Source of the DNA: Vicinamibacteria bacterium
GTDB lineage: Bacteria > Acidobacteriota > Vicinamibacteria > Fen-336
Assembly (NCBI GenBank): GCA_050246895.1
Contig: JBFWVE010000001.1
Span: 826,722 to 890,721, forward strand
DNA: 64,000 bases
Direction: 5' to 3'
In this document: positions 33,644-37,033 of the stretch, in pieces
How the letters are laid out: each line of letters begins with the position of its first letter
Numbering within the stretch: the stretch's first letter is position 1
Made by a program: the position numbers and the translations under genes
Notes under the pieces: model-generated
Database searches by the model: none
Told to the model about the DNA's origin: nothing
The model's input: the letters and a program-made list of their open reading frames with translations, nothing else

Positions 33644-35011
33644 ATGAAGCGCTCCCCGTTTCTCAAGACCTGGCTGGCGCTCGCCGTCCTCGGCGGGCTC
33701 TTCGCCTACATCTTCCTGGTCGAGAACAAGAAGCCCGCCGGCAGCGGCGACGGCGAGCCGAAGCAGAAGCTGTTCTCGCAGGACGCCGCCCAGGCGAAGC
33801 AGATCCGGCTCGAGCCGCGCGGCGGCGAGACGATCGTCGTCGAGAGGCACGACAAGGCCTGGAGCCTGACGGCGCCGCAGGCGGCCCCGGCCGACGCGGG
33901 CGAGGCGGAGGCGCTGCTCAGCACCATCAGGGGCCTCGAGCTCGACGAGGTGGTGGCCGAGTCCGGGGCCAAGCTCGCCGAGTTCGGCCTCGAGCCTCCG
34001 CAGCGCAGCGTCAGCGTGACGCTCGAGAGTGGCGCGCCGCTCGCGCTGCTGCTCGGCAACAAGACGGCCGACGGCTCGGCGCTCTACGCCAAGACGCCGG
34101 GCAGCCCGCGCGTCTTCACGCTGCCCGCGCACGTCGAGGCGAGCCTCTCGAAGTCGGCCTTCGACCTGCGCGACCGAGATCTGCTGCACGTCAAGCGCGA
34201 CGCCGTCAAGCAGCTCCTCGTCGCCGGCCCCGGCGAGAGCTACGCGCTCGCGCGCGGGGAGGACGGCGAGTGGGCCTTCACCAGGCCGCTCGCGACGCGA
34301 GCCGGCCGCTGGGCGGTGGACGGCCTGCTCGGGACGCTCGAAGGGCTGCGCATGGATCGGATCGCGGCAGAGGCGGCGAGCCCGGCGGAGCTGTCCAAGC
34401 TCGGCTTCGACAAGCCCGCGCGCAGCGTCACGCTGACGCTCGCCGACGGCTCGAGCCGCGAGCTGCAGATCGGCAGCTCGCCCGAGACCGGCCGCTACCA
34501 CGCGCGGGTGCAGGGCTCGTCGCTGGTGGCGGTGATCCCCGGCGCCCTGGTCGACGACCTGGCGAAGGGCATGGGCGAGCTGCGCATGAAGCGGGTGGCC
34601 GACGTCGCCACCTTCGACGTGCAGGGCTTCGACGTCGCGGCCGAGGGCAAGAAGTCGAGCTACGCCAAGTCCACCGAGAAGGACAAGGACGGCTTCGAGA
34701 CCTCGAAGTGGAAGCGCACCGCGCCGGACGCGCGCGAGCTGGACCGCGCCAAGGTCGAGGACGCGCTGTTCAAGCTGGCCGGGCTCGAGGTCCAGGAGTT
34801 CGTGGACGCGCCGGGGCCGGCCTCGGCCTATGGGCTCGACGCGCCCGCGCTCTCGGTGACGATCCGCCTCAGCGGAGGCAAACCGCCGCTGACCCTGGAA
34901 ATCGGCGAGAAGGACGGCTCCGCCTTCTCGCGGCGGCCCGCCGATGCGGCCGTGCTGAAGCTCGACGCCGCCAAGGTCGCCGAGGCGAAGAAGGAGCTGC
35001 TGGGGCTCTAG
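33644..35011 (+). CDS. DUF4340-like periplasmic protein, commonly the fourth gene of gldAFG-type operons
   Basis: A signal anchor (MKRSPFLKTWLALAVLGGLFAYIFLV) precedes repeated ~100-aa segments. The gene follows the gldG-like gene immediately. Confidence 0.7.
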   Translation: MKRSPFLKTWLALAVLGGLFAYIFLVENKKPAGSGDGEPKQKLFSQDAAQAKQIRLEPRGGETIVVERHDKAWSLTAPQAAPADAGEAEALLSTIRGLELDEVVAESGAKLAEFGLEPPQRSVSVTLESGAPLALLLGNKTADGSALYAKTPGSPRVFTLPAHVEASLSKSAFDLRDRDLLHVKRDAVKQLLVAGPGESYALARGEDGEWAFTRPLATRAGRWAVDGLLGTLEGLRMDRIAAEAASPAELSKLGFDKPARSVTLTLADGSSRELQIGSSPETGRYHARVQGSSLVAVIPGALVDDLAKGMGELRMKRVADVATFDVQGFDVAAEGKKSSYAKSTEKDKDGFETSKWKRTAPDARELDRAKVEDALFKLAGLEVQEFVDAPGPASAYGLDAPALSVTIRLSGGKPPLTLEIGEKDGSAFSRRPADAAVLKLDAAKVAEAKKELLGL

Positions 35012-35604
35012 CGTCTCGGGGCCGCGCCGGCCTCGACGACACGCGCGCGCAGGATCACGATCGGCGTCACCGGCACGTCTTCCATCTGGCCGGAGCGCCG
35101 GGTCGGCACCGCCACCATGCGGTCGACCACCTCCATGCCCTCGAGCACCTCGCCGAAGACCGCGTAGCCCGCGCCGCGGATGCCGAAGTCGAGCGCCGCG
35201 TTCTCCCGGACGTTCACGAAGAACTGGGCGGTGGCGCTGTCCGCCGCGTTCGTGCGCGCCATCGCGACGGTCCCGCGCAGGTTGCGCAGGCCGTTGCGGG
35301 CCTCGTTGCGGATCGCGGCCCTGGTCGGCTTCTCGGCCAGCCTGGCGTCGTAGCCGCCGCCTTGCGCCATGAAGCCGGGGATCACGCGGTGGAAGATGGT
35401 GCCGTCGTAGTGGCCCGCGCGCGCGTAGCGCAGGAAGTTCTCGACCGTGATCGGGGCCTTGTCGGGATACAGGCCGATCAGCAGGTTGCCGAGCGAGGTC
35501 TCGAGCAGGACGCGAGGGCCGCTCGTCACGGCCGCGGGCGTGGGCGAGGGGGGCGTCGGCGGCACGGCCTGGGAAAGCCCCAGCAGCAACAGCAGCGCGA
35601 TCAT
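35008..35604 (-). CDS. Cyclophilin-type peptidyl-prolyl cis-trans isomerase, secreted
   Basis: HRVIPGFMAQGGG... and ...FFVN... give the cyclophilin signature, and a signal peptide is present. Confidence 0.9.
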   Translation of the reverse strand: MIALLLLLGLSQAVPPTPPSPTPAAVTSGPRVLLETSLGNLLIGLYPDKAPITVENFLRYARAGHYDGTIFHRVIPGFMAQGGGYDARLAEKPTRAAIRNEARNGLRNLRGTVAMARTNAADSATAQFFVNVRENAALDFGIRGAGYAVFGEVLEGMEVVDRMVAVPTRRSGQMEDVPVTPIVILRARVVEAGAAPRR

Positions 35605-35710: not shown

Positions 35711-37033
35711 ATGGTCCTCTTCAACTACTCGACCAAAGAGCTCACCGCCAAGGTCGTCTACTACGGCCCCGGCCTGTGCGGCAAGACCACCAACCTCCAG
35801 TGGATCCACGAGAAGCTGCCCATCAAGAACAAGGGCAAGATGGTCTCGCTGGCGACCGAGGCCGACCGCACGCTGTTCTTCGACTTCCTGCCGATCGAGC
35901 TCGGCACCATCCGCGGCATGAAGACCCGCATCCAGCTCTACACCGTGCCGGGCCAGGTCTTCTACAACGCGACGCGGCGGATGGTGCTGAAGGGCGCCGA
36001 CTGCGTGGTGTTCGTGGTCGACAGCCAGGAGGCGATGCTCGACGCCAACCTCGACGCGCTCGCCAACCTGCGCGAGAACCTCGAGGCGAACGAGATCGAC
36101 CCCGACCAGATCCCGACGGTGCTCCAGTACAACAAGCGCGACCTGCCGAACGCGGCGCCGGTGGCCGTGCTCGAGCGGAAGCTGAACCCGAAAGGCTGGC
36201 TCCACTTCGAAGCTTCGGCCAAGCAGGGGATCGGGGTCGAGGAGACGCTCAAGGGGGTGACGGGACTGGTGTTCCGGTCGCTCGCCACCAAGTACGGAGG
36301 CGCCGTCGAGGCCCCCAAACCCGCGCCGCCGCCTGCTCCGAAGAAGCCCGCCGCGCGGCCCGTCTTCGCGTCACCGCCGCCGCTCACTCCGCCGCCGGCT
36401 CCGCGGCCCGCGGCCTCGCCGCTCGGCGGCAGCTCGGCCGACGACCTGCTCGACTCGCTGGGCATGCCCGATGCGGCGCCCGCCCCCGCCGCATCCTCGC
36501 CGCTCGACGATCTGAACCTCGGCCCGGCGCCGAGCGACGAGCTGGCGATCGAGGAGCCCGCGCCGCTCGGCGAGCTGGAGCTCGAGGACTCCAACACGGC
36601 GCCCAAGCTGGAGCTGTTGGCGGCGGCCGTGCCGGCCCCGGAACCGCCGGAGATCGGCCTCGAAGAGCTCGACAGCTCCCACGATCTGAACCTCGAGGAG
36701 CTGGCGCCGGAGCCGATGCCCGCGCCGGCCGCCGCGCCGGACCCGCTCGACGCGCTCTCGCCGATGAGCGAGTCCGCGCCGCCGGTCTTCGCCGCCGAGG
36801 AGGATCCGCTCGCAGGGCTCTCGGCTCAGGCGGCGCGGGTGCCGCCGCCCGCCGCAGGCGAGCCCGCGGCCCCCGCCGCGGCCACGGCCCAGGCGGTGCG
36901 GGTCGAGGTCGGGGCCGCTCCGGGCCAGACCGAGTTCACGATCCCGGTCGAGATCTCGCTCGCCGGCGGCACCACCCGCGTGACACTCAACCTCCGCCTG
37001 ACCCTCGACCTGAAACTGCCGCAGCGTCATTGA
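35711..37033 (+). CDS. MglA-family Ras-like small GTPase with ~240-aa acidic Pro/Ala-rich C-terminal extension
   Basis: The first ~195 aa are collinear with Myxococcus MglA (MVLFNYSTKELTAKVVYYGPGLCGKTTNLQWIH...TDRTLFFDFLP...LYTVPGQVFY...QYNKRDLPNA). After them come low-complexity PAPPPAPKKP..., repeated DxLxxL acidic motifs and a ~40-aa beta-rich tail. Confidence 0.85.
   Translation: MVLFNYSTKELTAKVVYYGPGLCGKTTNLQWIHEKLPIKNKGKMVSLATEADRTLFFDFLPIELGTIRGMKTRIQLYTVPGQVFYNATRRMVLKGADCVVFVVDSQEAMLDANLDALANLRENLEANEIDPDQIPTVLQYNKRDLPNAAPVAVLERKLNPKGWLHFEASAKQGIGVEETLKGVTGLVFRSLATKYGGAVEAPKPAPPPAPKKPAARPVFASPPPLTPPPAPRPAASPLGGSSADDLLDSLGMPDAAPAPAASSPLDDLNLGPAPSDELAIEEPAPLGELELEDSNTAPKLELLAAAVPAPEPPEIGLEELDSSHDLNLEELAPEPMPAPAAAPDPLDALSPMSESAPPVFAAEEDPLAGLSAQAARVPPPAAGEPAAPAAATAQAVRVEVGAAPGQTEFTIPVEISLAGGTTRVTLNLRLTLDLKLPQRH

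Follow-up and report, generated by a model that had tools for sequence, protein, structure and literature searches.

Bacteria can set cell polarity with a Ras-like switch, for which MglA serves as the model, and nearly all that is known of it comes from the Myxococcus module of MglA, MglB and RomR. The canonical MglA protein, of about 195 aa, has one domain only, and its gene lies directly downstream of mglB. We analysed a 64,000-nucleotide stretch of DNA from a Vicinamibacteria bacterium (assembly GCA_050246895.1, contig JBFWVE010000001.1, positions 826,722 to 890,721; hereafter the window, 64 kb in length) in which one gene encodes an MglA-like protein that differs from the canonical form: it has 243 residues more, no MglB is encoded in the 64 kb, and the protein belongs to a distinct clade. 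This raises the question of what the additional sequence is and what it might do for the switch. Our results suggest that the protein represents a widespread acidobacterial subfamily of orphan MglAs, which carry a family-specific beta-hairpin tail on a long, acidic, proline-rich tether.

The amino-terminal part of the protein is readily recognised. Residues 3-197 aligned without gaps to residues 3-196 of Myxococcus xanthus MglA (phmmer against PDB; 5YMX, E 6.5e-68), which bears out the collinearity that a first-pass annotation of this DNA, made from the letters alone, had seen for residues 1-195. The match to Thermus thermophilus MglA had an E of 2.4e-62, and identity to the two proteins was about 57-60 %. 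The known structures (5YMX, 6IZW, 6H5B and 3T12) share with the window protein the collinear G domain 3-197, the P-loop (GPGLCGKTT, residues 19-27), the intrinsic Arg finger R53, T78, the catalytic Q82 and the G4 motif NKRD (residues 141-144). R53 and Q82 align with R53 and Q82 of M. xanthus, T78 lies in LYTVPGQ as part of the TxxG motif, and all of these catalytic residues are invariant across 94 family members. TxxG in place of DxxG at G3/PM3 (Thr78) has been used as a criterion for the MglA family (PMC3000849), and the Arg finger R53 together with the catalytic Gln Q82 as one for Group 1 (PMC4316618).

Structure prediction gave the same picture. In an AlphaFold2 (AF2) model built on the family alignment the G domain is folded, with strands 57-67 and 70-80 forming the long beta2-beta3 hairpin. 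Foldseek of this model against 6H5B/6IZW returned a TM-score of 0.85 and a root mean square deviation of 2.7 Å at 57 % identity, and the Pfam Ras model matched with 27.7 bits against a cut-off of 21.6. Helix alpha5, followed by a clade-specific KYG junction, ends the domain. Within the family alignment the mean identity of the G domain to the window protein was 86 % and the minimum 79 %. The switch regions are nearly identical to those of canonical coupled MglA. The first-pass annotation had placed the switch region correctly, but had quoted it as TDRTLFFDF, which is the M. xanthus string; here it reads ADRTLFFDF (TEADRTLFFDF). Clade-specific substitutions in the G domain are few, namely F4, K9, A13, M70 (for F70) and, in alpha5, E177/E178/G182. 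By every catalytic and structural criterion tested, the protein can be assigned to the MglA family of small Ras-like GTPases, and its G domain retains all of the residues that MglA uses for GTP binding and hydrolysis.

Is the extension real? The window has a G+C content of about 70 %. The G+C content at third codon positions (GC3) of the open reading frame (ORF) was 0.85-0.98 in each 40-codon block, extension included, and the adjoining genes had an equal pattern. More than 100 proteins, 380-525 aa in length, were retrieved from the database, each with a long C-terminal region and with a G domain 80-93 % identical to that of the window protein. Because GC3 is high throughout and more than 100 homologues have the same layout, the extension must be a translated, conserved sequence, and we could rule out a frameshift or a chance ORF. 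The extension is thus genuine coding sequence and not a product of high G+C content. The longest mechanical ORF begins at a GTG at 35447 and runs to 37033 on the forward strand (528 aa), overlapping the gene region of a neighbouring peptidyl-prolyl isomerase (PPIase). This start was ruled out because the family N-terminus, MVLFNY/MVLFNYSTKELT, is invariant, which sets the start at the ATG at 35711. Beyond the G domain there are then 243 residues, where about 240 had been estimated, and the strings first quoted from the protein (YYGPGLCGKTT, PAPPPAPKKP, DDLLDSLGM, LDDLNLG, LEELDSSHDLNLEEL and TEFTIPVEISLAGGTTRVTLNLRLTLDLKL) are all present in the translation. The first-pass annotation had left room for a frameshift in case orthologues lacked the extension; as described, the homologues carry it.

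The extension consists of two parts that differ in composition and in conservation. The linker (residues 198-391) contains 23 % proline and 23 % alanine and has a net charge of -25 and a pI of 4.05. Disorder had been singled out earlier as a property to check. In the full-length AF2 model the linker had no secondary structure, and its block-mean predicted local distance difference test (pLDDT) scores were 41-67, mostly 45-53 past residue 230. Thus, the linker is predicted to be disordered. Its mean identity to the window protein was 27 %, and the length of the extension in the family ranges from 183 to 328 aa. Two acidic-leucine islands interrupt this variable background. The DDLLDSLGM island had a mean identity of 56 %, as against 27 % for the linker, and L246 and L247 within it were invariant in a 35-sequence alignment; motifs related to DDLLDSL occur, variably, in other classes. 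The second island, EPPEIGLEELDSSHDLNLEEL, is weaker, with a mean identity to the window protein of 34 %.

The tail, in which the first-pass annotation had predicted a beta segment, shows a conserved periodicity that agrees with this prediction. Across 94 sequences the two-residue alternation is near perfect: Val/Ile/Leu/Phe-type positions are occupied as such in 94-100 % of sequences and most of the positions in between are polar. In strand A, positions 409, 411, 413, 415 and 417 are hydrophobic in 100 % (beta-moment z = 3.5). In strand B the same holds for positions 424, 426, 428, 430, 432 and 434, with the alternates 84-100 % polar (z = 3.6). P412 is invariant in these 94 sequences, and the conserved G405 and G420 mark turns. 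The hairpin (residues 405-434) had a mean identity to the window protein of 55 %, and the net charge of the tail is +1. We compared hydrophobic moments with those of shuffled controls for the window protein and for tails of Holophagae, Thermoanaerobaculia, Fischerbacteria and Latescibacterota. The beta-type moment of the tail strands exceeded the controls (z 2.6-3.6, p <= 0.008), and the helical moment was not above shuffles in these five lineages. When the isolated tail was modelled with AF2 on a 43-sequence alignment, it formed a single long amphipathic hairpin of 12+12 residues (pLDDT 72-79).

To what extent is this tail specific to the long MglAs? A tail profile was searched against 1.84 billion representative proteins and matched 113 of them at E <= 1e-3, 34 of these at E <= 1e-10. 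With the exception of ten very large proteins and three short oddities, the matches were MglA-long fusions or C-terminal gene fragments; the fragments keep the Pro-rich linker and an ELLDSLEL-type island, and they match at their extreme C-terminus. The ten very large proteins each contain several matched stretches, at 7-20 bits per repeat, with a generic strand-turn-strand pattern (DVSVPATLTLPAGQTSVDLPI). By eye, these repeats look like Ig-like or Calx-beta-type sandwiches, and we read the matches as probable motif similarity, not homology. The idea that the tail is a module common to other protein families found no support, as the profile search gave MglA-long C-termini and their fragments with only weak repeat-protein matches. 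No Pfam or NCBIfam model covers the extension or the tail, either in the window protein or in tailed homologues of other classes. A PDB sequence-profile search with the tail had its best match at E >= 2, and with the hairpin Foldseek returned only E > 3. The amphipathic beta hairpin appears to be unique to the orphan long MglA family.

The three short database proteins (P0192, P0140 and P0175) have a tail-like C-terminus on an unrelated N-terminus. That of P0192 is zinc-ribbon-like (MRFVCDSCRAQYMISDD), and the starts of P0140 and P0175 are signal-peptide-like. These proteins may result from chimeric gene calling, or may represent alternative architectures that are rare.

The tailed MglAs are widely distributed. 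In a genome scan that sampled one genome per species, Vicinamibacteria metagenome-assembled genomes (MAGs; L001-L003) came out on top, and long MglA-like genes were also found in many other lineages. At least five lineages of Acidobacteriota have tailed forms. A common hairpin core (x-V/I-x-V-P-V/I-x-hydrophobic, a loop, and an alternating hydrophobic strand ending in basic residues) was found in Holophagae, Thermoanaerobaculia (about 380-410 aa), Polarisedimenticolia and Acanthopleuribacteraceae and, on long branches, in Latescibacterota and Fischerbacteria. The extension of the Holophagae forms is only about 100 aa long, and the cultured species Geothrix alkalitolerans and G. campi (L019, L023) have a tailed, short-linker form of about 294 aa. 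In a neighbour-joining tree of the G domain, calculated without support values, the MglB-coupled short forms stood apart from the orphan long forms, which make up a large clade. Thermoanaerobaculia and other Acidobacteriota are represented in both, the short and the long forms of Thermoanaerobaculia coming from different MAGs. Since both clades span these lineages, the coupled short and the orphan long MglAs look like old paralogues.

Within the orphan clade the C-terminal module varies: besides the beta tail there are helical ends, basic-aromatic ends, MinD-like ends, a transmembrane-like helix and a GYF_2-receiver-PATAN arrangement. The orphan forms of Nitrospirota (L031, L033, L035, L036 and L068) end in KKWFRF-type basic-aromatic sequences, and L044 ends in a hydrophobic transmembrane-like helix. 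The C-terminus of L043 is …RKKGLLSRMFGGGG, which we take to resemble the membrane-targeting sequence of Escherichia coli MinD. The helical hydrophobic moments of the MinD-like and KKWFRF ends were not significant in comparison with shuffled sequences. These differing modules fit with a C-terminal site, for targeting or for output, whose module can be exchanged.

Some members of the orphan clade are larger fusions. Proteins encoded at L004:5376-8378 and L006:9554-11929, and one in L020, combine an MglA G domain with a long linker, a GYF_2 domain, a response-regulator receiver and a DUF4388/PATAN domain. In the neighbour-joining tree these fusions branch as the sister group of tailed Vicinamibacteria forms, and L004 is itself a Vicinamibacteria MAG. 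In eukaryotes, GYF domains bind Pro-rich peptides. It is possible that the GYF-bearing fusion might read the Pro-rich tether of its tailed paralogue.

How does the protein relate to the MglB-coupled system? About 29 loci with a short MglA (about 194-230 aa) have mglB immediately upstream. A hidden Markov model (HMM) of MglB was built from the ORFs upstream of short mglA genes, which were recognised as MglB orthologues. This HMM found no match in the whole window even at E < 10, and no MglB within 10 kb of the tailed MglA loci; Pfam scans of the called window genes found no Robl_LC7 domain. The first-pass annotation had likewise seen no MglB next to the gene. The window contains housekeeping and envelope genes; a second MglA was not found within it, nor were pil, frz, glt, romR or bactofilin genes. 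By adjacency as well as by size (190-200 aa in the canonical form), the protein is not part of a canonical coupled MglA/MglB module.

Long MglAs without a partner have been noted before. Fremgen et al. (2010) defined a 'Group II MglA2', whose members exceed about 200 aa, have sequence added at the C-terminus and lack an upstream MglB partner; the published range is 225-327 aa, with 313 aa in Fibrobacter, 281 aa in M. xanthus and 225/291 aa in Geobacter. That grouping was by size only, and the extension was not analysed there. The window protein fits this definition, yet its 440 aa exceed the published range, and it is much closer to MglA than M. xanthus MglA2 is (44 % identity). The earlier suggestion of an undescribed variant is thus correct in part. 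It holds for the linker-hairpin module, for which we found no Pfam, NCBIfam or PDB entry and, in the literature searched, no description. It does not hold for long orphan MglAs as such; on extended or orphan MglAs, that literature gave only the size-based Group II note of 2010 and a classification of 2015.

Among orphan paralogues with additional sequence, only SofG of M. xanthus has been characterised. SofG carries an N-terminal extension. The window protein has none, as it starts with MVLFNY like MglA, and there is no bactofilin gene in the window. SofG is an orphan GTPase of the MglA family with sequence beyond its G domain; it works with the bactofilin BacP and is localised by binding a polymeric landmark (PMC4316618, PMC4085708).

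Based on these results, we propose a model for the function of the extension. We tentatively favour the view that the protein is a self-anchoring or self-associating nucleotide switch in which the tail is the attachment module. One face of the hairpin consists entirely of Val/Ile/Leu/Phe. Since ten aliphatic or aromatic side chains would be exposed on one side of the hairpin, this side must be buried, and this leads us to consider the tail an attachment module. The hydrophobic face may be buried against another copy of the tail in a small sandwich or sheet, or it may pack on a partner or scaffold protein or on the membrane surface. The tail would set the location or the valency of the switch, and the linker would be a long flexible tether that gives it reach. 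The acidic-leucine islands may be short docking motifs for effectors or for the protein's own G domain. The GTPase cycle would run without an adjacent GTPase-activating protein, either by intrinsic hydrolysis or with regulators encoded elsewhere. We infer that the built-in module for partner recruitment or localisation suggested in the first-pass annotation is plausible, and it is the role that we favour for the extension.

Known proteins offer parallels to this model. RomR consists of a receiver domain, a Pro-rich unstructured linker and a conserved RomR-C, and the linker and RomR-C are its pole-targeting determinants (PMC3441718). The window protein shares this design: a folded domain, an unconserved Pro-rich linker of lineage-specific composition and a small conserved C-terminal module. 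The two ends have no sequence relationship, however. RomR-C is a Glu-rich alpha-helical module that contains an invariant Trp; the tail studied here is a beta hairpin with a basic end. The design of RomR and the variable C-terminal modules in sister lineages both fit with self-anchoring. In eukaryotic Ras, Rho and Rab proteins, the G domain continues into a variable, flexible linker that ends in a short element for targeting at the C-terminus. Here the linker is about 10 times longer and acidic, and the end is a peptide hairpin and not a lipidated CAAX box or a polybasic stretch. We draw this comparison as an analogy only.

Several points weigh against anchoring or self-association. The tail-only hairpin model is of moderate confidence (predicted TM-score 0.39), and in the full-length AF2 model the tail, at pLDDT 70-75, has no strands and no evident docking. 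The notion that other orphan C-termini might be membrane anchors is drawn from resemblance, and the helical moments were not significant. The genomic context yields no functional clue, as the neighbours are housekeeping genes that are not conserved across classes. Last, the switch regions are near-identical to those of canonical MglA, so a distant MglB could act on the protein.

Should the tail anchor the protein to a membrane or scaffold, prokaryotic small GTPases would have a targeting element of a new type, which would also be a handle on spatial organisation in Acidobacteriota. These bacteria are among the most abundant soil phyla, and their cell biology is poorly understood. A large and strongly conserved sister clade across Acidobacteriota without an adjacent MglB, and with its own tether and hairpin, suggests a second, self-contained way to place or regulate the switch. 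The cultured Geothrix with their short-linker version make the question open to experiment.

The main rival to anchoring or self-association, which remains the best-supported inference, is that the extension is a built-in regulator, an element of which folds back on the G domain. We consider this unlikely, though it accounts for several observations. The C-terminal helix of MglB binds an allosteric pocket made up of alpha5, beta2 and the beta2-beta3 loop and stimulates nucleotide exchange, and an acidic helix of RomR can substitute for it (PMC6785124). All of the MglBs that we collected contain this helix sequence (…EITDEDIDSLFSE). In one variant of the explanation, DDLLDSL would mimic the acidic MglB helix or the Glu-rich end of RomR in the alpha5/beta2/beta2-beta3-loop pocket and so tune nucleotide exchange. 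The motifs have a common pattern (D-D-x-hydrophobic-D-polar-L), the pocket residues L64, I67 and K181 are retained, the substitutions that separate tailed from coupled forms (positions 4, 9 and 13 in the N-terminal strand, M70 for F70 in the beta2-beta3 loop, and alpha5) surround the pocket, and the orphan forms have no neighbouring MglB to supply a helix. However, AF2 gave residues 244-252 no helix and no confident placement (pLDDT about 41-52), and the family does not conserve K185, the partner of MglB D154, which is G185 here. The island is a short motif of a common acidic-amphipathic type, has a marginal helical moment (z 1.7, p 0.06) and differs between classes. In the other variant, the hairpin would pair with the edge of beta2 as a pseudo-effector and auto-inhibit the switch. 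The full-length AF2 model, a weak test of intramolecular docking, showed the extension without secondary structure and without ordered contacts. Moreover, regulation in cis leaves the tail, the best conserved part of the extension, unexplained. Elements of both ideas can be combined: the orphan long MglA might be the prokaryotic counterpart of the anchored eukaryotic small GTPases, with the hairpin in place of the lipid, fixing the switch to the membrane or to a sheet of its own making, and an acidic DDLLDSL helix of the tether in the MglB-Ct/RomR pocket in cis, such that exchange would be coupled to anchor release, in an Arf-like manner, without MglB or RomR. This combination seems to us distinctly unlikely.

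The extension could also make the protein a hub or condensate former, a PopZ-like matrix that would concentrate clients at a cell site while the G domain gates its assembly. In composition and layout the extension is like PopZ, which has a Pro-rich, acidic linker and a C-terminal oligomerisation region (PMC4085708); several acidic-leucine islands are conserved, and an amphipathic tail is suited to self-association. We still find a hub rather unlikely, as the linker is highly variable in length and sequence, as the extension of Holophagae has only about 100 aa, and as the oligomerisation domain of PopZ is helical and not beta. It is improbable that the protein is an ordinary MglA with a largely neutral appendage, its MglB being encoded elsewhere and the extension being a drifting spacer, for example for stability or turnover. 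The near-identity of switch regions and catalytic residues to coupled MglA and the hypervariable linker are what such a spacer would predict, but in many lineages the conservation of the tail and of the DDLLDSL island far exceeds the linker background, and GC3 indicates normal coding constraint. In addition, the tailed clade is distinct from the MglB-coupled one, and Thermoanaerobaculia yield both, if from different MAGs, which points to paralogues and not to replacements. Far more remote is the idea that the protein is part of a gliding or secretion apparatus tied to an upstream operon (ABC ATPase, ABC-2 permease, GldG-like ABC_transp_aux and DUF4340; 0.7-5.5 kb from the GTPase gene), with the tail as a sorting signal for the type IX secretion system (T9SS). 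Only the window and one close relative, L081, have this operon near the gene; it is not beside the gene in L001, L002 and L080, nor in any other class, and a probably exported PPIase on the opposite strand stands between it and the GTPase gene. There is no signal peptide, since the N-terminus is that of MglA, and no pil, glt or frz gene lies within the window. T9SS C-terminal domains are sandwiches of about 70-100 aa, and the tail is a hairpin of about 45 aa that no Pfam or NCBIfam model matches. A T9SS sorting domain and a gld-linked cargo are disfavoured by the MglA N-terminus, the length of the tail and the non-conserved gld linkage.

Table 1. Positions of the GTPase gene, its parts and its neighbours in the window
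Feature	Position	Strand	Evidence or remark
Long orphan MglA-like protein gene, complete	35711..37033	+	Translation: 440 aa, ATG start, stop codon 37031-37033
MglA-type G domain, residues 1-197	35711..36301	+	phmmer against PDB, Foldseek, catalytic residues, 86 % mean family identity
Acidic Pro/Ala-rich linker, residues 198-391	36302..36883	+	Composition, AF2 pLDDT, hypervariable sequence and length
Acidic-leucine island DDLLDSLGM, residues 244-252	36440..36466	+	Column conservation; consensus D-x-L-L-D-S-L-x-L
Second, weaker acidic-leucine island EPPEIGLEELDSSHDLNLEEL, residues 311-331	36641..36703	+	Column conservation; consensus EPELxLExI...EEL
Conserved C-terminal beta tail, residues 392-440	36884..37030	+	Tail profile search; mean identity 49 %
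Tail strand 0, V396-x-V398-x-V400	36896..36910	+	Positions 94-99 % strongly hydrophobic, polar between; no strand in AF2 monomer
Hairpin strand A GQTEFTIPVEIS, residues 405-416, invariant P412	36923..36958	+	AF2 tail-only strand E21-32, pLDDT 72-79
Hairpin strand B RVTLNLRLTLDL, residues 423-434, then basic residues	36977..37012	+	AF2 tail-only strand E39-50
Cyclophilin-type PPIase (PpiA-like, E 3.5e-65)	35008-35604	-	Divergent, directly upstream of the GTPase gene; signal-peptide-like N-terminus by eye
Weakly ParB/Srx-like protein, 301 aa	37263-38168	-	No Pfam match; ParB 4UMK E 9e-4; SerK E 3e-3; NCBIfam SerK/SbnI
PIG-L deacetylase with NPCBM_assoc domains, 906 aa	38321-41041	+	Downstream of the GTPase gene

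The neighbours of the gene differ in how well they are conserved (Table 1). The first-pass annotation had rightly placed the gene between a gldA/F/G-like and DUF4340 operon and a ParB/Srx-like gene, although it missed the divergent PPIase directly upstream. Synteny with the operon and with the ParB/Srx-like gene is not conserved, which speaks against a functional link to either and leaves that placement without functional weight. In L080 and L081, close homologues of the ParB/Srx-like protein are encoded at a distance of 5-7 kb from the GTPase gene; it is not a fixed neighbour. No neighbour is conserved across classes, and those specific to a class are housekeeping genes by eye (GltX/GlnS, FHA-RDD, Der/EngA and amidohydrolases). 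The divergent pairing of PPIase and GTPase is kept in all Vicinamibacteria-type loci (L001-L003, L080 and L081), where the PPIase is the only consistent neighbour. The cyclophilin is probably exported and functionally unrelated to the GTPase; given its signal-peptide-like N-terminus, a functional link is unlikely.

Two further observations concern gene order. The PIG-L deacetylase gene is also kept downstream of the GTPase gene in L001, L002, L003 and L081, at distances within about 0.2-6 kb. In the Holophagae loci L007, L009, L019, L022 and L023, a divergent upstream ORF is conserved that, by eye, appears to encode an FHA domain fused to an RDD-type membrane region, and it is followed by a gene that by eye is glutamyl-tRNA synthetase-like.

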